Source: Candidatus Nealsonbacteria bacterium
GTDB taxonomy: Bacteria; Patescibacteriota; Minisyncoccia; Minisyncoccales; MHMH01
Direction: 5' to 3'
Assembly (NCBI GenBank): GCA_016188865.1
Contig: JACPGX010000002.1
Span: forward strand, 2,398-66,397
DNA length: 64,000 bases
Under the pieces are notes generated by a model, which made no database searches, was not told the origin of the DNA, and worked only from the letters and a program-made list of their open reading frames with translations. Every line of letters starts with the position of its first letter. Position 1 is the stretch's first letter. Below are positions 482 through 62,736 of the stretch, piece by piece. The position numbers and the translations under genes were made by a program.

Positions 482-1953
482 AGCCGGTAATTAAAAATTA
501 CGCTTATACTATGTATCACGTTCCGAATCTCGTAAGGTACGGCTCGAAACCAATGCGAGAGATAGAAAAAAATCCTGAGCTCTATCCCAAAATTCATGAG
601 CTGCTAAGAAGCTACTTTGAAGCGGTGTCTTATCCGCCTAATCAAGTTTTCATCGGCAACATTAAGCCCGATGATTTGAGAGCAATTCCCAGGCCATGGT
701 TCAAAAATCCTGCCGGCGCTTTTCGCTCCGGAAAATTCGGCGAAATATTTTCAGAAGACGAATTTTTGGGCCTATTAAAAATTGCTGATGTCCATGATTA
801 CGAGTTGATCTGGCTGGAAAAGACTTTTACCGCGCACGTAAAAAATGTTTTAAATGAAAATCCCATACTGCAGGAAACCGATCTCCAGAAAATCGGCGAA
901 GGCAAAAGCATTCAGGAAATAAAAGAAAAATTGGAAAAAGGCGAAAATTTTAGCCTTCCGCTTTTATACGAAAACATTTTGGTAGGGTGCTTCAATCGGT
1001 CAAAAGACGTCCACGCCCAAGAAGATGAGGCCCTAAGCCCCCACCATCTGATGGAAGGGCTTGTTGCCAAAGCCTCGGGAGCTTTAGCCCTAAAACATCT
1101 TATTAGAAGAGAAGGCATTGGTCCTGAAGAAATAGATTTTATTCTTAGCTGTTCGGAAGAAGCCATTGGCGACAGGTACAATCGAGGAGGCGGGAGTTTA
1201 GCCAAAGCTATGGGAGAAATGTGCGGCTGCCAAAATGCAACTGGCTCCGACATTAAATCATTTTGCGTCGGCCCAGTTTATGCTATAGTTTTTGCAGCCA
1301 GTTTGGTTAAAGCAGGGGTCGTTAAAAACGTGGCAGTAGTGGGCGGAGGATGCCTTGCAAAACTTGGAATGAAATTCCAGGGGCACCTTGCAAGCGGCAT
1401 GCCGATTATTGAAGATACCTTGGCGTCATTTGCCTTTCTGATTGCTGGAGATGACAAAAAAAGCCCGATCATCAGGCTGGACGCTATCGGAAAAAATAAT
1501 ATAAAAAACGCTGCGAAACCCGAAAGTGTAACAAGAGCAGTAGTTTTGGAACCGCTGCAAAAATTAGGCAAAAAAATTACCGACATTGATAAGTATGCAG
1601 TGCAGCTGGAAAACCCGGAAATTACAGAACCATCTAAAACCGGCGACGTGCCGAGAAAAAATTACGACACGATTGCGGCTTTAGCAGTTATGAATGGAGA
1701 AATTACTCCGGCCGATATGCCGGCTTTCAGGGAAAAACACGGCATGCCTGGATTTTCGCCAACGCAAGGCCATGTGCCCGCGGCCGTCCCTTATGTCGGA
1801 CACGCAGTGGAGGCAATGGAAAACGGCGAAATTAAAAACGCCATGTTTGTCGCGAGAGGCAGTTTCTTTCTGGGAAGAATGACCCAATTGGAAGACGGAA
1901 TGTCATTTATTATTGAAAAAAATCCGAAAAGAAAGGAGGTGAAAAATGTTTAA
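478..1953 (+). CDS. grdC: Glycine reductase complex component C beta-subunit-like protein (thiolase/FabH-like)
   Basis: The N-terminus (PVIKNYAYTMYHVPNLV...NPELYPKIHELLRSYFEAVSYPPNQVFIGN) matches my recollection of GrdC N-termini. Sits between trx and grdA and is translationally coupled to both. Confidence 0.6.
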   Translation: MKPVIKNYAYTMYHVPNLVRYGSKPMREIEKNPELYPKIHELLRSYFEAVSYPPNQVFIGNIKPDDLRAIPRPWFKNPAGAFRSGKFGEIFSEDEFLGLLKIADVHDYELIWLEKTFTAHVKNVLNENPILQETDLQKIGEGKSIQEIKEKLEKGENFSLPLLYENILVGCFNRSKDVHAQEDEALSPHHLMEGLVAKASGALALKHLIRREGIGPEEIDFILSCSEEAIGDRYNRGGGSLAKAMGEMCGCQNATGSDIKSFCVGPVYAIVFAASLVKAGVVKNVAVVGGGCLAKLGMKFQGHLASGMPIIEDTLASFAFLIAGDDKKSPIIRLDAIGKNNIKNAAKPESVTRAVVLEPLQKLGKKITDIDKYAVQLENPEITEPSKTGDVPRKNYDTIAALAVMNGEITPADMPAFREKHGMPGFSPTQGHVPAAVPYVGHAVEAMENGEIKNAMFVARGSFFLGRMTQLEDGMSFIIEKNPKRKEVKNV

Positions 1954-2419
1954 GGGAAAAAAGATAATAATCTTTGGGGAAAGAGATGAAATTCAGGGCG
2001 CATCAATTGAAAATTGCCTTAAAGCAGCCGGAGTCAAAGAGGAAAACATTATTTCTTCCATAACTGAATGTTTTGTCTGAACAGCGGCTGGGGCAATGAG
2101 TCTGGAATACCAAAACGCCGTCAAAGATCTGGCTTTTAAATATGGGCCAGAAAACTTAGTGGTTATGCTCGGCTTCCTGGATATGGACCTTATTGAAATC
2201 CAGGCCATAACCATGACTGATGGCGATCCTTCCGGAGTTGGCTCATTGTCTGGAGTCGCGTTGCGGCTCAAAGTCTATCATATTCTGGAACCGGAAATAA
2301 AATCGCAGATTCCTCAAGACGTTTATCAGGAACAAATCGGCCTGATGGCAATCACCGCAGGGCCTGAAAAAATAGCAAAAATAAGCGAATTATTGCAACA
2401 ATTAAGAACCACCCGATAG
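1946..2419 (+). CDS. grdA: Glycine/sarcosine/betaine reductase selenoprotein A (GrdA), with in-frame UGA (Sec) at 2078-2080
   Basis: ATG at 1946 after a GGAGGT RBS. Translation MFKGKKIIIFGERDEIQG...ITECFV-U-TAAGAMSLEYQNAVKDL...GDPS..G.L.GV.L.L.VYHILEPE matches the GrdA hallmark CFVUTAAGAM. The ORF track reports only the part after the UGA (2096..2419). Confidence 0.9.
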
Positions 2420-2430
2420 GTGGTTCTTTT
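2406..2430. terminator. Bidirectional terminator between grdA and prs
   Basis: GAACCACC / GGTGGTTC hairpin followed by TTTT. The grdA stop codon (TAG) lies in the loop and stem. Confidence 0.6.
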
Positions 2431-3280
2431 ACTTGAGATTATCGGCAATTAAACGGCTTATATCAACGTTCGCTTCTTTGATTTTAACAGTATTGGTTAA
2501 ATAAAGTTTAAAAAACTTATTTTTCACTCTTTTAACGCCCGCTTTAAAGGGAGCGTGAGTGATTAAAGCAATTACCTTAGAAGCTCCGGAAGCGCTGGCA
2601 TAGTCGTAGAATTTGGAAAGGGTGCCTCCGGTTGCCAGAATGTCATCGATAACACCTATTACTCCTCCCCGAAAAATGATTTGCGATGGATAAAAATCCA
2701 CCCCAAAAGAATCAATCCTCTTTTTGTTTAAACCTGAAATTCCGGTCCTTCTTTTCCCGCCCCTGTCCGGAGACAAAAATAATATATCCTGGCCGAAGTC
2801 TTCTCTGGCTTTTTGCATCAAAAGATGGGCCGCTGAAACGCTTATTACCGGATATTTTTTAAGCCAGGGCATTTTCCCAAAATGCGGATCAATTGCATAA
2901 ATTTTCCTGACCTTGTAATATTTTACTGCTTTTTTTATAAGATTTTCGGCAGCGTTAGTTTCTCCGCGCTGAAATACTTTATCCTGCCGGCTATAGGGAA
3001 AATATGTAAAAAATAACTCTGGCCTTATCTTATGGTCTTTTAAAATTTGCAAAATCAAATCCAATTCCATCAAACCGTTGTTGGGATTGGGAGCTCCCGA
3101 ATGCAAAACAATTATCCTTCTATTTTTAAAACTGTTTATCCCAGATAATCTCATGTAAACTTCCCCGTCGGGAAAAAAACGCTTGCCTTCCTTGTTTTTT
3201 TCGGGAAAAATCAATTCAAAACTTTCTAAGTTTTTCGCCAAATGTTCAGCCGCAGATGTAAAAATTATAAGAGGCCTCAT
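2429..3280 (-). CDS. prs: Ribose-phosphate pyrophosphokinase (PRPP synthetase)
   Basis: Motifs FPDGE, PYSRQDK and the PRPP-binding loop VIDDILATGGT. Confidence 0.8.
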   Translation of the reverse strand: MRPLIIFTSAAEHLAKNLESFELIFPEKNKEGKRFFPDGEVYMRLSGINSFKNRRIIVLHSGAPNPNNGLMELDLILQILKDHKIRPELFFTYFPYSRQDKVFQRGETNAAENLIKKAVKYYKVRKIYAIDPHFGKMPWLKKYPVISVSAAHLLMQKAREDFGQDILFLSPDRGGKRRTGISGLNKKRIDSFGVDFYPSQIIFRGGVIGVIDDILATGGTLSKFYDYASASGASKVIALITHAPFKAGVKRVKNKFFKLYLTNTVKIKEANVDISRLIADNLK

Positions 3281-3810
3281 TAATATTGCAGCAAAGATCT
3301 TATTTTTTGCCCCTTAATATTTTTTCTTCCTTTTAAATAAGTCAACTCAATAAGAAAATTAACTCCCACAATTTTTCCCTTAAGCTGTTTGACTAGATCA
3401 ATAGCGGCTTTCATTGTTCCGCCGGTAGCTAAAACATCGTCAACAATGACAACTTTTTCTCCCGGCAGAATAGCATCTTCATGCATTTCAAGAACATTGC
3501 TGGCATATTCCAGAGAATATTCCCTGGAAACAGTTTTAGCCGGAAGCTTTCCTTTTTTTCTGACAATCGCTAACCCCGTCTTGAATTTATAAGCTGAAGC
3601 GGCAGCCAGTATAAAACCTCTAGCGTCAATGCCGACAATCTTATCAACTTTTTTCCCGGAATAAGGAGCAATCAAAAAATCAATCATTTTATGGAAAAGA
3701 TTCTTATCCTGCAGCAGGGGGGTGATATCTTTAAAATTAACTCCTTTATGCGGCCAATCGGGAATTTCCCTGATTTTAGATTTAATTTCCGAAAGAAGTT
3801 TTGTCCGCAT
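3280..3810 (-). CDS. apt: Adenine phosphoribosyltransferase
   Basis: 176 aa. VVIVDDVLATGGTMKAAIDLV PRTase motif and typical Apt N-terminus (IPDWPHKGVNFKDITPLL). Confidence 0.9.
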   Translation of the reverse strand: MRTKLLSEIKSKIREIPDWPHKGVNFKDITPLLQDKNLFHKMIDFLIAPYSGKKVDKIVGIDARGFILAAASAYKFKTGLAIVRKKGKLPAKTVSREYSLEYASNVLEMHEDAILPGEKVVIVDDVLATGGTMKAAIDLVKQLKGKIVGVNFLIELTYLKGRKNIKGQKIRSLLQY

Positions 3811-3815
3811 TCTAT

Positions 3816-4898
3816 TTAAATCTTAAAACTTTTAAACACCTCTTTGCAAAAATTGTGATTTCTTTTAACTTTTGGTAAAAAATAGAAGTTATCCCTAAGA
3901 TTTTCGTAATCATCTGGGATGATTCCGTATTCTATATCTTTTTTTATTTGCTGAGGCGCCTCAATGCCTCTTACCCACGTTCTAATGGTTGCCCAGTTTA
4001 CTTTTTGATGACGCGATAAGGCCCTAAATGACATTTGCTTCTTTCCAAAAACACGCAAACAATCCCAATATAGATTAGTATCATAAGTGTACTTTCGGAG
4101 GCATCTTACCATCTCTGTTAATTTATTTCTTTTATAAGCAATACTAAAGTTAATCAATTCTCTATACTTTTTAAGGTTACGATACAAAGAAACAACTAAT
4201 TGATCTGGATTATTTTTCTTATGGTATGTCTTGCTTTGAATGCCAAGTTCTAATAATAATTTTTGGATTTTTTTTAAAATTATCTCGTCATTTTGCGTTA
4301 TAACAATTTGATGTCTGTGGTTAGTGTTATCAACGCAACCCTCGGCATCGGCGAATCCTCGAATAAAGTTTGCTTTTACTTTTTTATTTCCATTTATTAT
4401 ATAATTGGGTATTGTTCTAGAATCTCCCATCATCTTTTTAATTCTTTTTACTACCAAAACCCTGTGGACATCGCAAATAAAAATACCCTCTCCTCCTCTA
4501 AGAATTGGTTCTAAACGATAGGCCTTTTTTATATATCTAGCAAATTTATCTCTAAAGTCTTTTTGAGTAACTTTAAGTCGAACGCCATTAGAACTCAGGT
4601 GTCCATCTCCCATCACTGCCCCAATAATATAAGCTTCGGCTACTTTTTCTTCAGTAGAATAAGGATGGTGAAATGATTTTGGTAAATTTTTTTTATTAAA
4701 TCTGCCGCGGAAATATGCAAATTTCTGAGCTTCCGCATTGTCTCTAATTTTTATGCCTGCTTTTCTAAGTTTATTGTAAATAGTTACCTTATTGATACCC
4801 AATTTCTCAGCGATTTCAACGCCAGTCATTCGTTGATAAAGTTTTCCTATGGAAATAGAAAAAGAGTCTTTGGTGTGATTTTGAAGTTTATTTAGCAT
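3816..4898 (-). CDS. Free-standing LAGLIDADG-type homing-endonuclease-like protein with flanking HTH segments
   Basis: Two LAGLIDADG motifs (YIIGAVMGDGHL and FIRGFADAEGCV). N-terminal HTH (VEIAEKLGINKVTIYNKLRKAG) and a C-terminal HTH-like segment. Confidence 0.8.
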   Translation of the reverse strand: MLNKLQNHTKDSFSISIGKLYQRMTGVEIAEKLGINKVTIYNKLRKAGIKIRDNAEAQKFAYFRGRFNKKNLPKSFHHPYSTEEKVAEAYIIGAVMGDGHLSSNGVRLKVTQKDFRDKFARYIKKAYRLEPILRGGEGIFICDVHRVLVVKRIKKMMGDSRTIPNYIINGNKKVKANFIRGFADAEGCVDNTNHRHQIVITQNDEIILKKIQKLLLELGIQSKTYHKKNNPDQLVVSLYRNLKKYRELINFSIAYKRNKLTEMVRCLRKYTYDTNLYWDCLRVFGKKQMSFRALSRHQKVNWATIRTWVRGIEAPQQIKKDIEYGIIPDDYENLRDNFYFLPKVKRNHNFCKEVFKSFKI

Positions 4899-7192: not shown

Positions 7193-8344
7193 CTAAAGTT
7201 TGCCAACTAAAATATCTTTTCTGATTTTTTGCATTAAACCGAGAGTGAAATAAAGATTATGAATAGTGGCTAATCTATAATATAGGAGTTCTTTGGCTCT
7301 AAAAAGATGCGATAAATAAGCCCGGGTGAAATTTTGACAGGTATAACAACCGCACTTCTTCTCAATGGCATGGAAATCTTTAATATATCGGGAATTTCCT
7401 ATATTCAAGCGGCCATTTTTTATCAGTAAAGTTCCTCTTCTGGCTAATCTTGTGGGCCAGACGCAATCAAATAGATCCATACCGTGCTTTACGCAATTTT
7501 CCAAATCTTCCGGCCGGCCTATACCCAAAAGATGGCGAGGTTTTTCTTCAGGCAATAATGGCGTAATCCACTTTAAAATTTTAAACATGTCTTTTTGTGT
7601 TTTTCCCAAAGAACCGCCAATGCCAATGCCATCAAAAGGCAAGGATGAAATGAATTTAGTGCTTTCTTCTCTTAAATCTTTATACTCTCCGCCTTGGATT
7701 ATCCCAAACAAAGCCTGTTCCCGCTTTTTTTTAACCTTTAAGCACCGCAAGGCCCAATTATGCGTTTTTTTTAAAGATTTTTTAGTATATTCATAATCAG
7801 CTAAAGGAGAGGTGCATTCGTCAAAGGCAAAAATAATATCGGCTCCCAAATCTTCTTGTATTTTAATGGATTTTTCCGGAGTAAAAATATGCTTTGAGCC
7901 GTCTAAATGAGAGGTAAATTCTACGCCATCGTCAGTAATTTTTACCAATTTAAGAGGTCCGACCTCCCGAGGAGGTCGGACCTCCTCATATCCCGGAAAC
8001 CACCCAATTTTTCCTATCTGGTGTACCTTGCCCCAGCCTAAAGAAAAAACTTGAAAACCTCCGCTGTCAGTAACCATCGGTCCCGGCCAGTTCATGAATT
8101 TATGGAGCCCGCCGGCTTTTTTTATAACATCCGCTCCCGGTCTCAAATAAAGATGATAAGTATTGGCTAAAATAATTTCGGCTCCCAAATTTTTCAAGTC
8201 TTCGGGCGTTAAACTCTTAACGCTGGCTTGCGTAGCTACTGAAACAAAAGCAGGAGTTTCAATCCTGCCGTGAGGCGTCTCTAAAATACCAGCTCTCGCC
8301 CAAGACTTCTTAGATTTTTTAACAATTTTAAATCTAAATTGCAT
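7193..8344 (-). CDS. tgt: Queuine tRNA-ribosyltransferase (tRNA-guanine transglycosylase)
   Basis: TPAFVSVATQASVK, VTDSGGFQVFSL and the C-terminal Zn motif CGCYTC. Confidence 0.9.
   Translation of the reverse strand: MQFRFKIVKKSKKSWARAGILETPHGRIETPAFVSVATQASVKSLTPEDLKNLGAEIILANTYHLYLRPGADVIKKAGGLHKFMNWPGPMVTDSGGFQVFSLGWGKVHQIGKIGWFPGYEEVRPPREVGPLKLVKITDDGVEFTSHLDGSKHIFTPEKSIKIQEDLGADIIFAFDECTSPLADYEYTKKSLKKTHNWALRCLKVKKKREQALFGIIQGGEYKDLREESTKFISSLPFDGIGIGGSLGKTQKDMFKILKWITPLLPEEKPRHLLGIGRPEDLENCVKHGMDLFDCVWPTRLARRGTLLIKNGRLNIGNSRYIKDFHAIEKKCGCYTCQNFTRAYLSHLFRAKELLYYRLATIHNLYFTLGLMQKIRKDILVGKL
7954..7985. repeat. GC-rich palindromic element (short form), in-frame inside tgt
   Basis: GAGGTCCGACCTCC-cga-GGAGGTCGGACCTCC. 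Read on the minus strand it encodes EEVRPPREVGPLK. Confidence 0.85.
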
Positions 8345-9791: not shown

Positions 9792-10244
9792 ATGATTTTA
9801 AGCGCTCATCTTCTTGCTGGGGCAGTTATCGCCTCAAAAATATCCAATCCGATCCTTGCTCTTCCCTTAGCTCTTTTAAGCCATTATTTTTTAGATTTGC
9901 TGCCCCAAACAGAATACTCAATCTCAAATATTAAAGCAAAACGTTGGAGTAAATCTCTTTTAGATTGGTCTAAAGTTTTTTTGGATATTTCCTTTGGAAT
10001 TTTATTAATTTATTTATTTTCCGATAAAAGCCCCCTAATCTTTATTGGAGCTATTCCAGCCATAATCCCGGATGGAATGACTTTAGTCTATATTCTTTTC
10101 CCCGGAAAAAAACTAATAAAACTGCATCATAAATTCCACCAAACCGTGAATAATGTCTACGATACTGAAACTAAAAGAAAACCCGCTCTTTGGGGCATTT
10201 TTATGCAGATTATCATAGCTCTAATAGCTATTTTCCTATTATAA
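9792..10244 (+). CDS. Small membrane protein (possibly a DUF457/YdjM-like membrane-bound hydrolase)
   Basis: Four hydrophobic segments and an N-terminal SAHLLAG...SHYFLDLLP pattern. Family assignment is tentative. Confidence 0.35.
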   Translation: MILSAHLLAGAVIASKISNPILALPLALLSHYFLDLLPQTEYSISNIKAKRWSKSLLDWSKVFLDISFGILLIYLFSDKSPLIFIGAIPAIIPDGMTLVYILFPGKKLIKLHHKFHQTVNNVYDTETKRKPALWGIFMQIIIALIAIFLL

Positions 10245-10923
10245 CCACAAATTCTCCCCTGATCTCTTCTTTTTCAAGCTGTTCCAAAACATCCTCAATC
10301 GTGCCCCGATAAATAGTTTCAAACTTTTTAGTTAACTCGCGGCAGACTACCACCGCTAAGGAACTTAGTTCCTTAGCCCTTAAGGAACTAAGTTCCTTAA
10401 GGGTTTTTATTATTCTATAAGGAGATTCGTAAAAAATTACCGGATATTTTGAATCCGCCAGCTGGCGAACTGCTTCCTCAAAAAACTTTTTTCTTTTATT
10501 TTTTACCGGCGGAAAACCCAAAAATAAAAACCTATCCATTGGCAAGCCAGAAATGGAAACTGCGGCAGTCAAGGCGCTCGGTCCCGGTATGGGCACAATT
10601 CTTATTAATGGATATCGGACATCCATTATTCTCCTAACCAATTGATTGCCGGGGTCGGAAATGCCGGGAGTGCCGGCATCGGAAACTAATGCCAAATTTT
10701 TACCTTCTTTCAAAAGCTGAAAGATATATTCAGCTTTATTTAATTTAGAGTGCTGATGATAACTTATGGTTTTAGTTTTAATCTCGTAATGATCCAGCAA
10801 CTTTTGAGTTTGCCTGGTATCTTCGCATAAAATTAAATCAACCGACTTTAAAATGTCGATTGCCCTTAATGTGATATCGCCAAGATTGCCAATTGGCGTA
10901 GCGACAATATAAAGAGTAGCCAT
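10228..10923 (-). CDS. rsmI: 16S rRNA (cytidine1402-2'-O)-methyltransferase
   Basis: LYIVATPIGNLGDITLRAI..L..VDLILCEDTR and SDAGTPGISDPG motifs. Confidence 0.9.
   Translation of the reverse strand: MATLYIVATPIGNLGDITLRAIDILKSVDLILCEDTRQTQKLLDHYEIKTKTISYHQHSKLNKAEYIFQLLKEGKNLALVSDAGTPGISDPGNQLVRRIMDVRYPLIRIVPIPGPSALTAAVSISGLPMDRFLFLGFPPVKNKRKKFFEEAVRQLADSKYPVIFYESPYRIIKTLKELSSLRAKELSSLAVVVCRELTKKFETIYRGTIEDVLEQLEKEEIRGEFVVIIGK
10355..10403. repeat. Two abutting perfect-arm palindromes inside rsmI
   Basis: GCTAAGGAACTtAGTTCCTTAGC overlaps CCCTTAAGGAACTaAGTTCCTTAAGGG. Encodes LKELSSLRAKELSSL. Confidence 0.85.
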
Positions 10924-17989: not shown

Positions 17990-18622
17990 TTATTCATGTA
18001 TCTTTATACTATACCATTCTGAGATATTTTTTAACAACACTAAATGATTGACCATGATTTTCAGTTTGAATAGAATATTCCAATCTTTTTTTAAAATTAA
18101 TTTAATAATTTTAGCGATATCGCAATCTACTTTTTTCCCCCGGACAGAGCATCCTGCAATATCGGGGTAATATCCCAAAATGGCGACTAGATTCCAAAAA
18201 AAATAATAATACATCAGCCTTAAATCATAAATCTTAAATCTTAAATCATTCATTTTACCTAAAACCTCGTTTAGGAGTTGCCAGATTTTTTCGTCTTTTT
18301 CTTCTTTGTGGGCCAATTCATCAAGAATTCTGACAATCCCATGAACAACATGCAATTTCCCCAAATTTCTTCTGATATTGATAAAGTTTTCTATCAAAAT
18401 AGCATCTGTAAGTGTTTTATGAGTTTTTCCCTGTATGAATTCAATTTCGGATAAATAAAAAAGCCCGGCGCCGCCTCTCAGCTTTGAGTTAATTTTTCTA
18501 ATTGCTTTTCCTAAAACTTTTATTTTCCCGAAATCTTCCGTATAAACAGTGAAAAGCTGATCCGCTTCTTTAAGATCAGCTTTTCTCAAAAAAATACCCC
18601 GAGTTCTGTAATGAACTGCCAT
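17990..18622 (-). CDS. recO: DNA repair protein RecO
   Basis: N-terminal OB-fold pattern typical of RecO (GIFLRKADLKEADQLFTVYTEDFGKIKVLGKAIRK). Confidence 0.8.
   Translation of the reverse strand: MAVHYRTRGIFLRKADLKEADQLFTVYTEDFGKIKVLGKAIRKINSKLRGGAGLFYLSEIEFIQGKTHKTLTDAILIENFINIRRNLGKLHVVHGIVRILDELAHKEEKDEKIWQLLNEVLGKMNDLRFKIYDLRLMYYYFFWNLVAILGYYPDIAGCSVRGKKVDCDIAKIIKLILKKDWNILFKLKIMVNHLVLLKNISEWYSIKIHE
18221..18248. repeat. Heptanucleotide tandem repeat (TAAATCW x4) inside recO
   Basis: taaatca taaatct taaatct taaatca. Encodes NDLRFKIYDLRL. Confidence 0.85.
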
Positions 18623-19098: not shown

Positions 19099-22000
19099 TT
19101 ATAATTTCTTCACCGCAAGACTAAGTTTTTGCCGATCAACATTTATTTCCTTCTCGCCTTTACCCGGCTTAAAATCCTTAGCCTTAATTTCAGATAAAAT
19201 AAACTTTTTATTTTTACCTAAAATTCTATTTAATTCTGACGCACCGGAATACTGGACAAAAATTTTATCTTTTGGCTTAAAGCCGGCTTCCTTTCTCATC
19301 TCATTAATCTGGCGAATAACTTCTCGAATAATTCCCTCTTCTTTAAGCTCTGGGGTAATTTTCGTATCCAATATTAAAATATTGCTGAAAATAATTTTCT
19401 TGACGTTAACTTCTTCTTTTATGAACTCTGATAAACCTTTCTCCATTTTCTCGGGAATCACAAGAGAAGTTAGGGGTTGGCGAACTTTTATGCCAGTCTT
19501 AGCTCTTTCGGCCAAGGCCAAAGCCACAATTTCCCTGACCCTCGTCATTTTCTGATTTAATTTTTTATTAATCAATTTTTTATTAGCCTTGGGCCAATCA
19601 GCCAAGTGGATACTGCGAGAACGCTTCTCGTAATGACGAGAAACGTTCTCGTAAATTTGCTCGGAGAGGAAAGGAATAAAGGGGGCGGTTAATTTTGAAA
19701 CCGTTTGAAGAACCAAGGTCAGAGTGCCGACAGCTTCGTTAAAACGCTTGCGCGACCTTCTGATATACCACAAAGACAGATCGTTAACCACAAAATCTTC
19801 AATAGCTCTGGCCGCTCCTGTTACGTCGTATTTATCAAGATTATAAGTAGTTTCTGCAATTAACTCATTTAATCGGGAAACCACCCACTTATCTAATAAG
19901 TTTTTAGTTTTTAGTTTATAGTTTGTAGTTTTAATATTATAAGTTTTGTAGAAAGTAAAACAATTCCACAAAATCAAAATAAACTTTTTCAAAGCTTGGT
20001 CTATGTCTTTTTCTGTAAAAAGTTTTGAATCGCCGGACTGATTAACTGTGTAAAAATACCACCTAACAGCGTCGGCGCCATATTTTTCAACAATATACCA
20101 AGGGTCAACGACATTGCCCCTTGATTTTGACATTTTCTCTCCTTTCTCGTCTAAAACATGGCCAGTAGAAATTACATTTTTATAGGGCGCGCCTTTTCCC
20201 AAAAGTGTGGAAACCGCCAAAAGTGTATAGAACCAGCCGCGAGTCTGATCGATAGCCTCTGAAATATAATCAGCTGGAAATATGGCTCCGGAAGCGAACG
20301 GCATACTGCCCGAATCAAACCAAACATCGCAAACTTCCGAAACCCTTGCCATTTTTTCTCCGCATTTAGAGCAATAGAATTTAATTTCATCTATATAAGG
20401 CCGATGAAAATCAACCCTCCCCTCTTTATCCAGGGGTAAATTTTTAAAATCCAGCTTGCGCCACTCTCCGGTCTTTATGTCTTTTTTAGCTAATTTTATT
20501 TTCAATAATTTTTCGTCAGACAAACCCTTGACTGCTCCTTCTAAAAGCCACAATGGATCGCAATGGCTGACAATTAAAATAGTTTTATTTTTATGCTTTT
20601 GATCAATATCGCTTATAAAGCTCATCATTCTTTTTCTAACTTCGCCCCAATTTTCCCCGCCTTCGGGCTTTCTCCCGTAAAAACTGTCTACGCTTTTCGG
20701 AAAATCTTTAAAATATTTTTCTTTCTTTTTACCCTGATAAATGCCAAAATTCATATCTCTTAAGCGCATATCAGAAATTATTTCTGCGCCAAGTTCTTCA
20801 TTAACGAGCTGGGCTGTCTGACGGGTTCTGTTCATATCTGAAAAATAAATTATATCTATTTTCTTTATTTTAAGTTCTTTAGCGGCTTTTCTTACATCGC
20901 TCTCCCCACCCTTGCTTAATAATATGGGACTTTTTTCCGGCCAAGGATAAATATAATCTCCATTATTAACCTGATGGTTATTTTGGCCGTGCCGCATAAT
21001 ATAATATTTATTGGCTGAAAATTTTTGACCCAATAAATCATTTTTACCACCGATAACTTCCTTGAGCCCGCAACTCTGACAGCTCCAAATCGGCAAAGGT
21101 GTTCCCCAATATCTCTCTCGGGAAAAAGCCCAATCTTTCAGTTCTTTTAGCCACTCGCCGAATCTCCCGTCTTTTAAATGCGAGGGCACCCAATTGATTT
21201 TTTGGTTGTTGCCGATCAGGTCTTTTTTTACGTCCTGCATTTTTATAAACCAGCTCTCTTTGGCGTAATAAAGAAGCGGCGATTTGCAGCGCCAGCAGAA
21301 AGGATAATCATGCTCGTATAATTCTTCTTTAAAAAGAACTCCCCTCTCCTGCAGGTCTTTAATAATCAACGGGTCCGCATCTTTAACAAACATTTCATTC
21401 CACTCATAATCCGGCGTTATCATTTTGCCTTCTTCATTAACGGTCACTAATACTGGCAAATTATTCTCTTTTCCTACCTTCATATCATCCTCGCCAAAAG
21501 CCGGAGCAATATGCACCAAACCTGTACCGTCTTCCATGGAAACAAAATCGCCGGCAACTACGCGATATTTCGATGTCCGACCTCCCGACAAATCTGACGG
21601 GAGATCGGACATCCCAAATATCCGTTCATATTCTAATCCAATTAAGTCCCTACCCTTAAATTCTCCAACGATTTCTCCAACTATGCCGACTGGCTTCATT
21701 CTATCTTTAGCTAAAATCAGATATTCCTCACCAACTTTTATTTTTACATAAGTAAATTCCGGGTTTACCGCTACCGCAACATTCCCGGGCAAAGTCCAGG
21801 GCGTCGTCGTCCACACGAGCAAAGAAGAGTCCTTGAATTTTAAATTTTTAATCTTAAATCTTACATAAATTGAATTTTCTTCAATTCTTTTGTACCCCTG
21901 CGCCACTTCATGGGAAGACAAACTTGTCCCACACCTCGGACAATACGGCACTACTTTGTAATCTTTGTACAAAAGCCCTTTTTGATAAATTTGTTTTACT

Positions 22001-22467
22001 ATCCACCATAAAGTTTCGATATATTCATTTTCATAGGTGACATAAGGGTGCTCCATATCTAACCAATAGCCAATCCTTTCGGTTAATTTCTCCCAATCTC
22101 GCTTGTATTGCCAAACCGATTCTTTGCATTGCTTATTGAATTCAGCGATACCATATCTTTCAATGTCTTTTTTATTTTTTAAGCCCAGCTTTTTCTCAAC
22201 TTCCAGTTCTACGGGCAAACCATGGGTATCCCAGCCGGCTTTTCTCAAAACCCTAAAACCCTGCATGGTCTTATAGCGGCAAATAATATCTTTGAAGGCG
22301 CGGCTTAAAACATGATGAATACCCGGCTTCCCATTAGCCGTCGGCGGTCCCTCGTAAAACACAAAATCCCGCGCCCTAGCGCGCTGTTTGATGCTTTTCT
22401 CAAAAATCTTCTTTTCTTTCCAGAACTTCAATATCTCTTCTTCTTTCTGGGAAAAATTTAACTCCAT
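19099..22467 (-). CDS. ileS: Isoleucyl-tRNA synthetase (type 2) with an inserted histidine-phosphatase domain
   Basis: HIGH (PPTANGKPGIHHVLSR), KMSKS, editing-domain TTPWTLPGN and WFDSG motifs. A PGAM-type domain sits at about aa 486-686 (YIMRHGQ ... IVSHCDPL). Confidence 0.95.
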   Translation of the reverse strand: MELNFSQKEEEILKFWKEKKIFEKSIKQRARARDFVFYEGPPTANGKPGIHHVLSRAFKDIICRYKTMQGFRVLRKAGWDTHGLPVELEVEKKLGLKNKKDIERYGIAEFNKQCKESVWQYKRDWEKLTERIGYWLDMEHPYVTYENEYIETLWWIVKQIYQKGLLYKDYKVVPYCPRCGTSLSSHEVAQGYKRIEENSIYVRFKIKNLKFKDSSLLVWTTTPWTLPGNVAVAVNPEFTYVKIKVGEEYLILAKDRMKPVGIVGEIVGEFKGRDLIGLEYERIFGMSDLPSDLSGGRTSKYRVVAGDFVSMEDGTGLVHIAPAFGEDDMKVGKENNLPVLVTVNEEGKMITPDYEWNEMFVKDADPLIIKDLQERGVLFKEELYEHDYPFCWRCKSPLLYYAKESWFIKMQDVKKDLIGNNQKINWVPSHLKDGRFGEWLKELKDWAFSRERYWGTPLPIWSCQSCGLKEVIGGKNDLLGQKFSANKYYIMRHGQNNHQVNNGDYIYPWPEKSPILLSKGGESDVRKAAKELKIKKIDIIYFSDMNRTRQTAQLVNEELGAEIISDMRLRDMNFGIYQGKKKEKYFKDFPKSVDSFYGRKPEGGENWGEVRKRMMSFISDIDQKHKNKTILIVSHCDPLWLLEGAVKGLSDEKLLKIKLAKKDIKTGEWRKLDFKNLPLDKEGRVDFHRPYIDEIKFYCSKCGEKMARVSEVCDVWFDSGSMPFASGAIFPADYISEAIDQTRGWFYTLLAVSTLLGKGAPYKNVISTGHVLDEKGEKMSKSRGNVVDPWYIVEKYGADAVRWYFYTVNQSGDSKLFTEKDIDQALKKFILILWNCFTFYKTYNIKTTNYKLKTKNLLDKWVVSRLNELIAETTYNLDKYDVTGAARAIEDFVVNDLSLWYIRRSRKRFNEAVGTLTLVLQTVSKLTAPFIPFLSEQIYENVSRHYEKRSRSIHLADWPKANKKLINKKLNQKMTRVREIVALALAERAKTGIKVRQPLTSLVIPEKMEKGLSEFIKEEVNVKKIIFSNILILDTKITPELKEEGIIREVIRQINEMRKEAGFKPKDKIFVQYSGASELNRILGKNKKFILSEIKAKDFKPGKGEKEINVDRQKLSLAVKKL
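19901..19935. repeat. Heptanucleotide tandem repeat (TTTNTAG-like x5) inside ileS
   Basis: tttttag tttttag tttatag tttgtag ttttaat. Encodes YNIKTTNYKLKTKNL. Confidence 0.75.
21572..21613. repeat. Palindromic element (diverged full-length copy), in-frame inside ileS
   Basis: GATGTCCGACCTCCCGACAAATCTGACGGGAGATCGGACATC. Encodes MSDLPSDLSGGRTS on the minus strand. Confidence 0.8.
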
Positions 22468-23068: not shown

Positions 23069-23160
23069 TAACGTTTCCTCCTTTCAAAGAGCAACTTTAA
23101 CTTTAAAATGATAGCATATTCTAATTTTTCTATCAAATTATTTTAGTATAAAAACTAAAT

Positions 23161-23194
23161 ACGTATGAATTAAACTATGGTTTTTTTCATACGT
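23161..23194. promoter_or_regulatory. CCATGG-type long palindrome (copy L1), abutting the stop of the PaaX-like gene
   Basis: ACGTATGAATTAAACTATGGTTTTTTTCATACGT, with outer arms ACGTATGAA / TTCATACGT. Confidence 0.6.
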
Positions 23195-23196
23195 AA

Positions 23197-23769
23197 TTAT
23201 ATTTTAAAAATTTCCCTTAGAAAATCATCATTTTCTATATTCTCGGCGGTGATTAAACGAACTTCGCGCTGTCCCAACCCAAAGAACTCCCTCAATAACT
23301 CTACCTCATCTTTGCAGGGATAAGGATTAATCCAAACGCTTTTCTGCAAAGGCAAAAAACCTAATTCCCTTAATTTTCCCCTGAAAGCATTCCGTTGTAG
23401 ATTTTTAAGCTGAATGATATCAAAAATTACTATTCGCCATTTTTTATCCCATTTTTTCGGCTTATTTATATTCAAACTGTCAATTTGAAACCTGCCGGCC
23501 AATTTTCTCCCTTTTTCCGTCAAAGAAATATAAATTTGATGATTTTTATTTATAATTTTAATACATCCTTGCCTTCTAAGATTATAAAAGGTGTCGGAAA
23601 CTTTTTTCGCTTTATACTTGTCTTTATTTTGAAATCCTTTAATAATATTCGTGGCAAAATGGGGAGAGGTAGCAGCGATGCAAACCGCACCGGCAACGGC
23701 CAGCCACTTAAAAACATCTTTGGTGATTTCTGATTTCGGTTTTCTAAAATAATATTTATATTTACTCAT
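23197..23769 (-). CDS. PaaX-like / Cas2-fold domain protein with N-terminal hydrophobic segment and wHTH-like middle (paralogue 1)
   Basis: KWRIVIFDI...LRNAFRGKLRELGF.PLQKSVWINPY resembles the Cas2-like ferredoxin-fold core of PaaX-family proteins. Paralogue at 62063..62635. Confidence 0.6.
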   Translation of the reverse strand: MSKYKYYFRKPKSEITKDVFKWLAVAGAVCIAATSPHFATNIIKGFQNKDKYKAKKVSDTFYNLRRQGCIKIINKNHQIYISLTEKGRKLAGRFQIDSLNINKPKKWDKKWRIVIFDIIQLKNLQRNAFRGKLRELGFLPLQKSVWINPYPCKDEVELLREFFGLGQREVRLITAENIENDDFLREIFKI

Positions 23770-23777
23770 AGTCTAAT

Positions 23778-23813
23778 AACGTATGAATAATACCATGGTT
23801 TTATTCATACGTT
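23778..23813. promoter_or_regulatory. 36-bp near-perfect palindrome (copy R1), 9 nt upstream of the PaaX-like start: candidate operator
   Basis: AACGTATGAATAATACCA|TGGTTTTATTCATACGTT, with one mismatch between the half-sites. Confidence 0.65.
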
Positions 23814-23845
23814 ATTTTATATTACTATATTAACGGGCTTTAATC

Positions 23846-43676: not shown

Positions 43677-44498
43677 TTATTTATAAAAAGCGATTGCCCC
43701 GTAGCCCACTACTTTTGATTTACCCCTCCCACCAAAATTTTGGTGAGGGGGTTTATCGCCAGCAGTATCTCCGGAGTTAGCGTATTTTAGCAAAGATGCT
43801 TTGCCGCCTAAAAGTTTGGTTGTTTCAATTAGCGTTTTTACTGAATCAATGGCGCAAATATTTAAATTGCTCACCCGAAGATTTAAAATGTTTTTTAGAG
43901 TTTTCTCATCAATATCTTTTGCTTCTTTATAAGATAAATAATGCGATAAATCTGCAGAAGCTATAATTAAAACTTTCCTATTTTTTATATTTTTAAAAAT
44001 CACTCTGGCCAGCAATTGCCAGTCTTTATTTTCCGAACCAAAAATAATCGGCAGAATTTTAAAATTTTTGACAGAGATCCTCTGCAAAAAAGGCAGCTGG
44101 ACCTCGATCGAGTGTTCCCAAAGGTGGGCAGAATCTCTCCTAAAAAATCTTCTTGAACTGTCGAGAACCGTTCTCGTCAGTTTTTTATCAACCATTACCT
44201 TGCCGAGAGGTGTCTCCCAAAATCCCTCTTCTGACCATACAGCAACTCCGTCAAATCTCTCGTAGTGAGAGTCGCCCATAATAATGACCGTATCAAATTT
44301 TTTACCGATAATAGCTTTAAAGCCATACGCTGCTACTTGTCCGGAATAAGCATAGCCCGCATGAGGCAAGAGCAAACCGAAAATTTCTCCTTTAATCTTG
44401 GGGGGATTGGCCCGATCTAAAAGTTTATTTATTATTCCAGATAATTCCTTGTTATTTTCCGGATAAAATTCTCCGGCTAATGCAGCCGACCTTAACAT
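43677..44498 (-). CDS. AmmeMemoRadiSam system protein B (Memo-like)
   Basis: AGEFYP, LLPHAGYAYSGQVAAYGF and the C-terminal VVGYGAIAF pattern. Confidence 0.8.
   Translation of the reverse strand: MLRSAALAGEFYPENNKELSGIINKLLDRANPPKIKGEIFGLLLPHAGYAYSGQVAAYGFKAIIGKKFDTVIIMGDSHYERFDGVAVWSEEGFWETPLGKVMVDKKLTRTVLDSSRRFFRRDSAHLWEHSIEVQLPFLQRISVKNFKILPIIFGSENKDWQLLARVIFKNIKNRKVLIIASADLSHYLSYKEAKDIDEKTLKNILNLRVSNLNICAIDSVKTLIETTKLLGGKASLLKYANSGDTAGDKPPHQNFGGRGKSKVVGYGAIAFYK
43722..43752. repeat. Palindromic insert (related centre CAAAATTTTG), in-frame in the Memo-like gene
   Basis: ACCCCTCCCACCAAAATTTTGGTGAGGGGGT. Encodes KPPHQNFGGRGKS just before the conserved VVGY terminus. Confidence 0.7.
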
Positions 44499-44863: not shown

Positions 44864-44906
44864 GGAGGTCCGACCTCCACTCAAATTTGAGAGGAGATCG
44901 GACCTC
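44864..44906. repeat. 43-nt palindromic element, intergenic copy (EndoQ / Mth938-like spacer)
   Basis: GGAGGTCCGACCTCC-ACTCAAATTTGAGA-GGAGATCGGACCTC. Confidence 0.9.
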
Positions 44907-49326: not shown

Positions 49327-49369
49327 GGAGGTCCGACCTCCACTCAAATTTGAGAGGAGGTCGGACCTC
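49327..49369. repeat. 43-nt palindromic element, intergenic copy (10 nt upstream of the tRNA-Arg 5' end)
   Basis: GGAGGTCCGACCTCC-ACTCAAATTTGAGA-GGAGGTCGGACCTC. Confidence 0.9.
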
Positions 49370-51460: not shown

Positions 51461-53017
51461 ATGAATACTGCCGAAATAATGATTATGGAAATTATGAAAA
51501 ACCGGCTGAAAACTCCGGAGGATTTGGCATCTGTAAAAAGGAAAATGTCAAAAAAATACAAAGTCCCCTGTCCCAGCAATATTAAACTGTTAGAAACTTA
51601 CCGTAAAATGCTTGAGAATAAAAAAATTAAAAAAACTCCGCTGATTGAAAAATTACTGCGAACCCGGCCGGTAAGATCGCTTTCCGGCATTGTAAACATT
51701 TCGGTTTTAACCAAACCCTACCCTTGCCCCGGAAAATGTATTTATTGTCCCACCGAAAAAGGCATTCCCAAAAGCTATGTCTCCGGAGAACCAGCCGTAG
51801 AAAGAGCAAAAAAATTAAATTTTGACCCCTATTTACAGGTAAAAAAAAGAATTGAAACCTTGGAAATGGAAGGCCACCCTACGGATAAAATAGAGCTGCG
51901 CATAGTTGGTGGAACATGGTCTTATTACCCAAAAAAATACCAGGAATGGTTCATCAAGCGCTGCTTTGAATCTTGCAATAATGGTCGGACGTCGGGTTTC
52001 CGACCAACTCAGAGGTTCAATGAGCGAGCTCGGCACCGTATTGTCGGACTATCTATAGAAACTAGACCAGACTTTATAAATCTCGGCGAGATTAAATGGC
52101 TTAGAGAACTTGGCGTAACAATGGTTGAGCTGGGGGTTCAATCAATTTACGACGATGTTTTAAAATTCAATAATCGCGGCCATGGGGTGAAGGAGATAAG
52201 CGAGGCCACCAAACTCTTAAAAAATGCTGGCTTCAAAATCCTTTATCAAATGATGCCCAATCTGCCCGGCTCAACTTCAACTCGTGATTTAAAAATGTTC
52301 GGAGAACTGTCCTCTGATTTTCGATTTAAGCCAGATTTATTAAAAATATATCCGTGTGCTTTAGTTAAAGGAGCGCCGCTTTACAAATTATGGAAAAATA
52401 AAAAATATAAACCGTATACTGAAAAACAACTAATAAATTTAGTGAAATCAATCAAAAAAATCATCCCCTATTATGTGAGGATACAAAGAATCACCAGAGA
52501 CATTCCTTCTCATAGCATAGCGGCCGGGCCTGCAAAAATATCAAATTTACGGCAAATAGTTTCCGGTAATTGTAAGTGCATCCGCTGCCGGGAAGTGGGG
52601 GCAAATTACGATCCCAAGGAAAAATTATATTTATTCCGCCAAGATTACAACGCCTCCGGCGGCAAGGAGATTTTTTTATCTTTTGAAAACAAAAATCGAA
52701 GCAAACTTTACTCCCTACTCCGCCTTCGTCTATGTAACGGGTCGTACCAGTTACATGGGGCAGTTATCCGGGAGCTTCACACTTACGGCCAATCGCTAGA
52801 GGTCTGGCATCCCTCCAAATTTGGGGGAGGTCGGACCTCTCCCTCTCCGCAACACAAGGGATTGGGGAGAAAACTCATCAAAGAGGCGGAAAAAATCTCC
52901 GAAAAAGAATTCGGCTTTAATAAAATTACGGTAATTTCCGGTATCGGCGCAAGAGATTACTATCGAAAACTCGGCTATAGACTGGAAAATACTTATATGG
53001 TAAAAAAATTAAGATAG
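51461..53017 (+). CDS. elp3: Elp3-like radical SAM plus GNAT tRNA-modification enzyme
   Basis: Radical-SAM cluster motif CPGKCIYCP, ELGVQS, and a C-terminal GNAT region (QHKGLGRKLIKEAEKI). Confidence 0.85.
   Translation: MNTAEIMIMEIMKNRLKTPEDLASVKRKMSKKYKVPCPSNIKLLETYRKMLENKKIKKTPLIEKLLRTRPVRSLSGIVNISVLTKPYPCPGKCIYCPTEKGIPKSYVSGEPAVERAKKLNFDPYLQVKKRIETLEMEGHPTDKIELRIVGGTWSYYPKKYQEWFIKRCFESCNNGRTSGFRPTQRFNERARHRIVGLSIETRPDFINLGEIKWLRELGVTMVELGVQSIYDDVLKFNNRGHGVKEISEATKLLKNAGFKILYQMMPNLPGSTSTRDLKMFGELSSDFRFKPDLLKIYPCALVKGAPLYKLWKNKKYKPYTEKQLINLVKSIKKIIPYYVRIQRITRDIPSHSIAAGPAKISNLRQIVSGNCKCIRCREVGANYDPKEKLYLFRQDYNASGGKEIFLSFENKNRSKLYSLLRLRLCNGSYQLHGAVIRELHTYGQSLEVWHPSKFGGGRTSPSPQHKGLGRKLIKEAEKISEKEFGFNKITVISGIGARDYYRKLGYRLENTYMVKKLR
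51983..52005. repeat. Short GGTCGGA...TCCGACC hairpin inside elp3 (possible degraded palindromic element)
   Basis: GGTCGGACGTCGGGTTTCCGACC encodes NGRTSGFRPT. It shares the GRTS reading with other copies. Confidence 0.45.
52799..52840. repeat. Palindromic element (left arm degenerate), in-frame inside elp3
   Basis: GAGGTCTGGCATCCCTCCAAATTTGGGGGAGGTCGGACCTCT. Encodes LEVWHPSKFGGGRTS in the linker before the GNAT motif. Confidence 0.7.
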
Positions 53018-57000: not shown

Positions 57001-57049
57001 TACTTTATTCTAACAAAAAAAGCCGCCATAAGCGACCGCCGAAATATCC

Positions 57050-57093
57050 GGAGATCCGATCTCCTCTCAAATTTGAGTGGAGATCGGATCTCC
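57050..57093. repeat. 44-nt palindromic element, intergenic copy in inverted orientation with compensatory arm substitutions
   Basis: GGAGATCCGATCTCC-TCTCAAATTTGAGT-GGAGATCGGATCTCC. Confidence 0.9.
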
Positions 57094-57099
57094 CGAATA

Positions 57100-61961: not shown

Positions 61962-61994
61962 TATAAAAAGGTGACGAAATCGTCACCTTTTTTA
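61961..61994. repeat. Terminator hairpin, left copy of a 34-nt duplication flanking the PaaX-like cassette
   Basis: ATATAAAAAGGTGACGAAATCGTCACCTTTTTTAT. Repeated at 62703-62736 with only the loop changed (AAA versus TTT). Confidence 0.85.
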
Positions 61995-62028
61995 TTCCAA
62001 AATCTGCCAAAAAATTAAATATCTAAAT

Positions 62029-62064
62029 AACGTACAATTCAAACCATGGTTTCAATCTTACGTT
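62029..62064. promoter_or_regulatory. CCATGG-type 36-bp palindrome (copy L2), overlapping the stop of PaaX-like paralogue 2
   Basis: AACGTACAATTCAAACCA|TGGTTTCAATCTTACGTT. Confidence 0.6.
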
Positions 62065-62635
62065 ATTGTATTTTGAAAATTTTTCTTAGGGGACTGTCGT
62101 CTCCCATGTTTTCGGCGGTAATTAAGCGAATCTCCTTTTCGCTCAAGCCGAAAAAATCTCTCAGGAGGTCTATCTCATCCTTACAGGGATAGGGGTGGAC
62201 CCAAACACTTTTTTGAAGAGGACAAAAACCCAATTCTTTCAATTTACCCCTGAAGGCATTGCGTTGCAGATTTTTAAGCTGGGCGATGTCAAAAATTACT
62301 ATTCTCCATTTCTTGTCCCATTTTTTAGGTTTATTGATTTTCAGGCTATCAATCTGGAATATTTCCGCTATCTTTTTTCCTCTATCGGTTAGAGAAATAT
62401 AAATTTGGTGGTTCCTTTCTTTTGCAATAATACACCCCTGCTTTTTAAGATTATAAAAGGCGTCGTAAACTTTTTTTCTTTTATATTCTGGCTTCTTCAA
62501 ATTCTTCACCAAATTAATAGTGAAATATGGGGAGCCAGCTGCGATACAAACCGCGCCAGCTGCTGCCAGCCCCTTTAAAATATCTTTGGCAATCTCCGAC
62601 CTTGGTTTTGCAAAATAATATTTATATTTACTCAT
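62063..62635 (-). CDS. PaaX-like / Cas2-fold domain protein (paralogue 2)
   Basis: Aligns end to end with 23197..23769 with a single one-residue indel. Most positions are identical, including KWDKKWRIVIFDI.QLKNLQRNAFRGKL.ELGF.PLQKSVW. Confidence 0.6.
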   Translation of the reverse strand: MSKYKYYFAKPRSEIAKDILKGLAAAGAVCIAAGSPYFTINLVKNLKKPEYKRKKVYDAFYNLKKQGCIIAKERNHQIYISLTDRGKKIAEIFQIDSLKINKPKKWDKKWRIVIFDIAQLKNLQRNAFRGKLKELGFCPLQKSVWVHPYPCKDEIDLLRDFFGLSEKEIRLITAENMGDDSPLRKIFKIQ

Positions 62636-62702: not shown

Positions 62703-62736
62703 ATATAAAAAGGTGACGATTTCGTCACCTTTTTTA
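62703..62736. repeat. Terminator hairpin, right copy of the 34-nt duplication
   Basis: ATATAAAAAGGTGACGATTTCGTCACCTTTTTTAA, directly after the korB stop. Confidence 0.85.

Follow-up and report, generated by a model that had tools for sequence, protein, structure and literature searches.

Repetitive extragenic palindromes (REPs) are stem-loops of 20-40 bp that lie mostly between genes, although some occur in frame within genes, often those of replication and repair, where dimers of the unit encode 20-30 amino acids (aa) (PMC3733652). REPs of the GTAG/CGTC superfamily are defined by an unpaired tetranucleotide at one end, and Patescibacteria are not among the phyla listed for them (PMC3733652); in a REPIN (REP doublet forming a hairpin), two inverted copies of a palindromic unit form one hairpin (PMC3116915). 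Rickettsia palindromic elements (RPEs) are repeats of ~100-150 bp found in frame in housekeeping open reading frames (ORFs), with peptides thought to be compatible with folding (PMC10969869). The GC clusters of yeast and fungal mitochondria are short GC-rich palindromes of an AT-rich genome, present in frame in var1 and bounded by terminal repeats that have been read as target-site duplications; they show rapid loop change, merging, shuffling, tandem arrays, tRNA-gene flanking and recombination hotspots (PMC8811140). The byps of Magnusiomyces mitochondria are likewise GC-rich palindromic inserts within protein-coding genes (PMC8811140). The present analysis concerns a palindromic repeat, here called family 1, in a 64-kb stretch of a Candidatus Nealsonbacteria genome (GCA_016188865.1, contig JACPGX010000002.1, positions 2,398 to 66,397; the whole stretch is referred to as the window), with copies in the genes tgt, ileS and elp3 and between genes. 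It is probably a dispersed, non-autonomous, nested-palindromic hairpin repeat of Patescibacteria, tolerated and translated in permissive protein loops.

Family 1 has the structure GAGGTCCGACCTCC-loop-GGAGGTCGGACCTC, a nested palindrome built on the 13-nucleotide (nt) dyad GAGGTC-S-GACCTC, two inverted copies of which surround a loop of 3-20 nt. The arms (14 bp) are true reverse complements, with C at the centre of one and G at the centre of the other, and the hairpins measure 31-42 nt (~58 nt with flanks). The short form, found in tgt, has a 3-nt loop and the long form a 14-nt loop that is palindromic in itself (ACTCAAATTTGAGA or similar). Long forms also add outer AATATT inverted repeats, bringing them to ~58-64 nt in all, and their flank consensus of AATAT(T) plus 2-3 nt is conserved. 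The arms are stop-free in all six frames, and the 42-mer consensus can be read through in two frames out of three. GC content is 0.55-0.66 in family 1 compared with about 0.38-0.42 in the window, and copies folded as RNA reach -30 to -38 kcal/mol (z = -4 to -8).

Six copies are present in the window, three genic and three intergenic (Table 1), the intergenic ones being additional to those in the original prediction. They amount to 12 paired arms, to which two single arm-like matches (51983 and 60910) are added. The 11-mer arm core GGTCGGACCTC, allowing up to two mismatches, occurs 21 times, against 4.8 +/- 2.1 in shuffled sequence, and none of 100 shuffles reaches 21. The tgt copy has perfect 14-bp arms with pairing that extends over 7952-7986, the ileS copy is extended by outer ATATTT/AAATAT flanks, the elp3 copy has a left arm decayed by three substitutions, and the variant at 57047, with arms GAGATC..GATCTC, keeps both symmetries. 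The window also holds a transfer-messenger RNA (tmRNA) and one tRNA-Arg(CCG); at least 84% of its length lies in ORFs of 150 aa or more, and Pfam identifies a bacterial TGT, a class I IleRS, an Elp3 (radical SAM plus GNAT) and a Memo-like protein among their products.

Table 1. Positions of family 1 copies and of other palindromes in the window
Feature	Position	Strand	Encoded peptide or context
Family 1, short form in tgt (14-nt arm, 3-nt loop, 14-nt arm)	7954-7984	-	EVRPPREVGPL, aa 121-131
Family 1, long form (42 nt) in ileS loop 1	21572-21613	-	(G)MSDLPSDLSGGRTS, aa 285-299
Family 1, long form (41 nt) in elp3	52799-52839	+	EVWHPSKFGGGRTS, aa 447-460
Arm-core remnant GGTCGGA..TCCGACC at second variable Elp3 site	51983-52005	+	GRTSGFRP
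Family 1, intergenic copy	44865-44906		Inside 58-nt block running from stop codon to next start codon
Family 1, intergenic copy	49328-49369		12 nt upstream of tRNA-Arg(CCG)
Family 1, intergenic variant, GAGATCCGATCTCC arms plus outer AATAT flanks	57047-57096		Between AAA_28 gene and NIF3 gene
Palindrome CCCCCTCACCAAAATTTTGGTGGGAGGGG in Memo-like gene	43719-43751	-	Clean 33-nt, 11-aa insertion PPHQNFGGRGK
Second dyad family CGAGAAC.GTTCTCG (CGAGAACG.TTCTCG, two copies) in ileS loop 2	19616-19651	-	YENVSRHYEKRSR

Several other identities were set aside. An assembly or adaptor artefact is contradicted by the same element in the same codons of independent assemblies (ENA, NCBI, JGI and Logan), including a Logan contig that matches the window at 100%, and a known RNA family by Rfam, which at gathering threshold returns only the tmRNA and the tRNA in the window. 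An intrinsic-terminator role for the intergenic copies was rejected for want of a consistent T-run on the transcribed strand, and an origin of the arm from a T-arm or tRNA fragment on inspection, because a T-loop cannot have 5 nt.

The original prediction had placed one palindromic family, inserted in frame and read in different frames, in tgt, ileS, elp3 and the Memo-like gene. The sequences it quoted lie at the positions it gave and read in its frames, and the family assignment stands for the first three genes, the Memo palindrome being a different sequence in which only the centre is alike. In tgt the arms read EVRPP...EVGPL, with the first arm base at codon position 1; in ileS they read MSDLP...GGRTS, in a phase that differs from tgt; and in elp3 they read EVWHP...GGRTS, the 41-nt length producing a frame switch inside the loop. 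The arm-encoded peptides are EVRPP/EVGP in one frame and RSDL/GGRTS in another, the set of possible readings being EVRPP, RSDL and GPTS, and GGRTS, RSDL and EVGP. All coding copies in the window keep the host frame open and in phase, as had been claimed, and would be translated into Pro/Gly/Arg/Ser-rich peptides.

The proposed location of these sites in loops was borne out as well. In the AlphaFold2 model of TGT (mean predicted local distance difference test score, pLDDT, 89.8), the sole low-confidence segment, residues 103-130, covers most of element residues 121-131, and the palindrome sits in a loop of ~30 aa specific to Patescibacteria, which solved TGT structures lack. Loop 1 of IleRS, within the CP1 editing domain, measures 19 aa compared with a baseline of ~11 aa and 10 aa in T. 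thermophilus, which makes it 9 aa longer than the latter. The Elp3 loop, just before the QHxGxG motif (QHKGLG), measures 17 aa compared with a baseline of 9-12 aa, and the M. infernus loop is six residues shorter. Coding copies survive only in flexible, length-tolerant protein loops, and the encoded peptides are consistent with tolerated surface loops in TGT, Elp3, IleRS and Memo.

At the tgt, ileS and elp3 loops, orthologues have either a peptide of comparable length but unrelated sequence, or the same element in a version that is decayed, shortened, frame-shifted or has three arms. Homologous residues in orthologues, which the original prediction had associated with ancestral peptides and coincidental nucleotide similarity, are present in many of them, because the element itself is shared and reworked among related genomes. 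It is scarcely credible that the peptides are ancestral loop residues whose DNA is alike by coincidence or by codon-usage convergence. The motif G[RLQ]TS is indeed common at the Elp3 site among many Patescibacteria homologues, some baseline IleS peptides (EFVKPPKPSWF) faintly resemble EVRPPKEV, and the three genes offer no clean empty site; but perfect 14-nt arms are common to three unrelated genes and three intergenic sites in a number that no shuffle reaches, frames and peptides differ while the DNA stays the same, and beyond the lineage (TGT of T. maritima, Elp3 of M. infernus and IleRS of T. thermophilus) the loops are shorter and of unrelated sequence.

Alignment with syntenic relatives at ~75% nucleotide identity, including L049 (GCA_016186525.1) and L194 (GCA_016181985.1), shows whole units gained or lost since close relatives diverged, so that the repeat acts like mobile DNA of a selfish or semi-selfish kind. 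The 58-nt block at 44865 is missing from L049, which reads TAA-CC-ATG, and the copy at 49328 is kept with its flanks upstream of tRNA-Arg in the same relative. These two copies are identical at 41 of 42 bases, and the absence of one from L049 together with its match to the conserved other points to recent gain or loss of whole units; their near-identity is likely the best sign of a recent copying event. The 57047 copy is missing from L194, where the spacer is 18 nt, compared with 99 nt in the window.

Alignments of the coding sites show that resident copies also decay, with loop loss converting the long to the short form, a third arm being gained, and single-base shifts changing the frame of an arm. 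At the TGT site the same short form is found in L193 and L112, and L107 has the variant GAAGCCCGGCTTCC-CGG-GGAAACCAGGCTTC, whose coordinated changes preserve the symmetry within the arm and leave two C/T inter-arm differences; other TGT homologues read EARLPxEAGLQ at the element site. The Elp3 site has perfect arms with a compensated T/A pair in L194, the short form in L197 and no element in L195. The segment at 51983-52005 that had been proposed as a possible remnant proved real, being common to the Elp3 orthologues L195 and L197 and absent from L194. At IleRS loop 1, L189 has three arms (arm-loop-arm-loop-arm), of which L188 is a 36-nt deletion derivative and the window copy resembles L189 minus 15 nt; L187 has a short form whose left arm begins one base later, giving EVRPP instead of RSDL; L190 has a decayed short form; and L191 is element-free. 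Some of the different-frame reads at one site are thus due to 1-nt indels within one resident element. Neighbour-joining ordering of IleRS interleaves element-bearing sequences with element-free ones, so multiple gains or losses at loop 1 are likely; the same ordering speaks against a single origin of these copies, although some frame differences are 1-nt shifts at one site.

The coordinated changes raise another reading, namely that the hairpins are functional structures kept at fixed places, for translational pausing, mRNA processing or stability, or as operator-like dyads for a dimeric protein, their sequence being free to change provided that a hairpin and a tolerable peptide result. This is unlikely. 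It would account for the different palindromes that the same loops hold across genomes (IleS loop 2, and the TGT loop in L107, L123, L130 and L183), for the arm changes at 57047 (GAGATC..GATCTC), the T/A pair in L194 and L190 and the several in L107, and for conservation of the copy upstream of tRNA-Arg with its flanks. However, ~70 of 80 TGT orthologue loci lack an above-background palindrome in the loop, the elp3 arm in the window is decayed, intergenic copies are present or absent between close relatives, and local selection does not predict identical sequence in unrelated genes. Selection at the RNA level was rejected separately, since the sense-strand mismatches comprise 4 G-U wobbles and 3 C-A pairs and show no bias; this, and the lack of an Rfam match, also tells against a selected structure.

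The distribution of family 1 was examined by a scan of species-representative genomes for both arms, which gave at least 106 loci, at least 56 of them low-GC. Among the matches listed, the titled low-GC loci are nearly all from Patescibacteria (Nealson-, Giovannoni-, Jorgensen-, Uhr- and Moranii-bacteria, Parcubacteria and Paceibacterota), to which several metagenome-assembled genomes with doubtful labels are added, and nearly all have full GAGG/AAGG-extended arms with many different loops; the high-GC matches lack the GAGG/AAGG extension and look like chance hairpins. At least 57 strict copies were tallied from the matches listed, the window and the relatives' contigs, a copy being counted as coding when in phase inside an ORF of at least 200 aa. 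Among the matches listed 26 of the 57 are coding (46%; three of six in the window), compared with at least 84% coding sequence in the window, which indicates that insertions into genes are mostly purged. A second long type (47-nt type B, loop CGAAATTAACGTAATATTAG) is non-coding in all seven listed copies and has stop codons in other frames, and one copy (L061) is read in the third frame, with TGG where the consensus has TGA.

Further coding copies were found, among the matches listed, in genes of other Patescibacteria identified by Pfam as LigA, GatB, RecG, GatA, TsaD, XseA and MiaA, and the coding copies use all three phases (12, 8 and 6). LigA carries the hairpin in two genomes, 4 nt apart and in different frames, GatB carries it at the same site in two genomes, RecG in two genomes, and GatA, TsaD, XseA and MiaA in one genome each. 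Carriage by phages or viruses was not supported: none of 50,697 phage records matched family 1, and IMG/VR gave no exact match to both arms.

The breadth of this distribution also bears on whether the arm is a DNA-uptake-type signal, like the uptake signal sequences and DNA uptake sequences (USS/DUS), or another genome-wide signal read by conserved Patescibacteria machinery, with hairpins as by-products of paired signals. Among the matches listed, several Patescibacteria classes share the conserved 13-14 nt arm but differ in their loops, each arm is dyad-symmetric in the manner of sites for dimeric proteins, and uptake signals do occur in coding regions and pair as inverted repeats. They are, however, present at roughly 1 per kb, far denser than family 1, in which arms are mostly paired at low density rather than forming dense single copies. 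Single arms are nearly absent from the window (only 51983 and 60910), hairpins number about one per 12 kb, and none was found in the ~110 kb flanking the relatives' genes, so a signal of this kind is very improbable.

Judged by analogy, family 1 is functionally closest to intragenic REPs and REPINs, Rickettsia RPEs and mitochondrial GC clusters. As a short stem-loop made of an inverted doublet of a palindromic unit it resembles a miniature REPIN, and both have sub-families with alternative complementary stem residues. Its GAGG...CCTC ends are base-paired and flanked by AATATT, and the absence of an unpaired GTAG/CGTC tag places it outside that REP superfamily; it also differs in its much lower copy number, and no REP-associated tyrosine transposase (RAYT; IS200/IS605-like Y1) was seen among 29 window ORFs scanned. 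It shares with RPEs an in-frame position inside conserved ORFs of a small-genome bacterium, and the RPE precedent that had been invoked holds as a way of working, but size (31-42 nt) and host (Patescibacteria) set it apart from RPEs, as does its replacement of loop residues in tgt, ileS and elp3.

The likeness to GC clusters lies in high GC content, a three-arm array (L189), loop turnover, a copy beside tRNA-Arg and TAAA..TAAA at one of its own sites. It is a likeness of behaviour only, since GC clusters are organellar and of unrelated sequence, and ribozyme or bypass behaviour has been proposed for some of them whereas family 1 ORFs stay open. In byps the frame is interrupted and the ribosome skips the insert; the coding copies of family 1 are all open and in phase, and plain translation is therefore simpler than bypass. 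Miniature inverted-repeat transposable elements, or MITEs, resemble it in being non-autonomous, with inverted repeats, presence/absence polymorphism and in-frame fusions, but family 1 is far smaller and no autonomous insertion sequence (IS) with matching ends was found in the window.

The Memo palindrome has in common with family 1 only a CCTCC..AAATTT..GGAGG-like centre. Clean insertions of 10-14 aa had been predicted for all host genes, and Memo is the only one that provides one: its 33 nt are absent from the syntenic L049 and from ~70 diverse Memo representatives, and the 11 inserted residues precede the conserved VVGY strand. TAAA stands on both sides of this palindrome and of the 44865 block, the empty sites reading TAAC and TAAG (n=2 sites, one of them not of family 1, at ~75% identity).

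A dispersed repeat of this kind could have spread by an enzyme acting in trans and recognising the dyad or the hairpin, as in REPINs and MITEs, or by break-and-repair or gene-conversion copying between copies, as in mitochondrial GC clusters. Palindrome fragility might then keep an occupied loop a hotspot for further turnover, and it is proposed that such turnover would explain why the same sites recur and why loop residues are replaced instead of being added to.

Several observations sit less easily with a mobile repeat. Scanning the 29 larger window ORFs revealed no transposase and no gene of RAYT-like or IS type, and the only homing-type gene among the ORFs scanned, encoding a LAGLIDADG protein, has no evident link to family 1. 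The tgt, ileS and elp3 copies replace hypervariable-loop residues with a net gain of 1-9, a clean empty site not having been seen; in the TGT orthologue L192 (82% identity) an unrelated 10-codon stretch stands opposite 11 palindromic codons of the window. Density is low, with six copies in ~74 kb of the Nealsonbacteria genome (the window plus a further 9.6 kb of contig past its right end, in which no arms were found), and family 1 was not found outside the three target genes in ~110 kb of the relatives' contigs. The TAAA..TAAA repeats only suggest a target-site duplication, the translation of the inserts is deduced from their open frames, and the variants with coordinated arm changes (57047, L194 and L107) could also reflect selection on structure.

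Under a stronger reading, Patescibacteria would possess a lineage-wide system in which a conserved factor recognises or breaks the conserved GAGGTC-S-GACCTC and analogous dyads of other families, and repeated break-and-copy repair rewrites the same surface loops of essential enzymes, or alternatively the hairpins are selected intragenic regulatory structures. It is improbable; if true, it would mean natural, site-focused loop rewriting or regulatory hairpins rather than passive junk.

Family 1 is not the only palindrome in these genes. Hairpins with a stem of at least 13 bp number 18 in the window, compared with 1.7 expected from shuffles, and several are genic. IleS loop 2 holds a second dyad family (Table 1), nearly the same 39 nt of which occur in L196 although the IleRS proteins are only 65% identical, whereas in closer relatives the site holds different palindromes or repeats. 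Four of the seven genes examined have a hairpin of 10 pairs or more in IleRS loop 2, and the other three have weaker palindromic or tandem-repeat sequence by eye. The CGAGAAC.GTTCTCG dyad is also found in Memo at 44156-44182. The L190 IleRS gene (490-3879) contains the palindrome TGTTTAAC..GTTAAACA at two sites, read as GCLTPGVKQ and SCLTWNVKQ, and a perfect 40-nt palindrome, TTGGACATGCGACGTCCAACGTTGGACGTCGCATGTCCAA.

In rsmI (10228-10923, minus strand), a nested palindrome at 10352-10404 with a 19-bp stem encodes KELSSL-RA-KELSSL. The loop exceeds that of the orthologues in L187 and L193 by 4-5 aa, and the palindrome resembles the product of a local duplication, inverted or direct, more than it does a dispersed element. 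In recO (17990-18622, minus strand), a palindrome at 18549-18587 with a 14-bp stem encodes conserved RecO sequence, LRKADLKEADQLFT, with no change of length relative to orthologues. Both look locally generated, which raises the possibility that palindromes in general arise in place, by template-switch (quasi-palindrome) or fold-back mutagenesis and without movement of an element. The resemblance of the rsmI palindrome to a local KELSSL duplication (+4-5 aa), the unchanged length and conserved context of the recO palindrome and the tenfold excess of long hairpins over shuffled sequence all fit such an origin, but it cannot give the same 28-42 nt in tgt, ileS and elp3, at three intergenic sites and in LigA, GatB, RecG and further genes of other genomes, and as a full account it is distinctly unlikely. 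Template-switching may nevertheless act alongside family 1, explaining the mutual correction of its arms. Several palindrome families, and perhaps some local palindrome-forming mutation, thus act on the same permissive loops.

Other features were observed in the host genes and their surroundings. IleRS (19099-22467, minus strand) contains a His_Phos_1 domain at aa 489-662, between T. thermophilus-equivalent residues 477 and 488; it is present in 120 of the 120 closest homologues and appears from this alignment to be a lineage-wide domain insertion in an essential synthetase. Upstream of tgt in the relative L192 (5234-9292, GCA_016186525.1) is a gene for a UvrD/AddB-like helicase with Hint and intein-splicing domains. 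The LAGLIDADG ORF, of 360 aa (3816-4898, minus strand; LAGLIDADG_3 plus Hom_end), has a gene for purine or uridine phosphorylase on one side and phosphoribosyltransferase genes on the other. AT-rich palindromes at 23156-23199, 23775-23816 and 62009-62084, which share ACGTATGAAT..ATTCATACGT, flank two paralogous PaaX_M-like genes (23197-23769 and 62063-62635) and may be operators. Terminator-like hairpins at 61965-61992 and 62707-62734, with identical arms AAAAAGGTGACGA / TCGTCACCTTTTT and 2-nt loops AA and TT respectively, bracket the 62063-62635 gene. The contig past the window's right end (L198:1-9587) encodes succinyl-CoA ligase, succinate dehydrogenase or fumarate reductase, and fumarase, a set that is unusual for a Nealsonbacteria genome.

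The kind of element represented by family 1 is already known from REPs, RPEs and GC clusters, and what is provisionally new is its sequence and lineage. The original prediction that such a system is undescribed in this lineage agrees with the literature consulted, the coverage of which is incomplete: no published description of family 1, or of in-frame palindromes in Patescibacteria, was found.

Genomes of the candidate phyla radiation (CPR), or Patescibacteria, are usually portrayed as very small and streamlined, with little mobile DNA. Hairpin repeats in the loops of tRNA-modification enzymes, aminoacyl-tRNA synthetases, DNA ligase, GatB and RecG represent a hidden layer of genome dynamics in these organisms, and family 1 offers an explanation for some of the insertions that are lineage-specific in proteins of the CPR. 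In practice, inserts of this kind can lead alignments, phylogenies and structure predictions astray, and they could be used as markers at strain level. The recurrent occupation of the same protein loops by several palindrome families, in several frames, is the part most worth following up, as it provides a tractable system in which to ask whether palindromes create their own insertion or repair hotspots.

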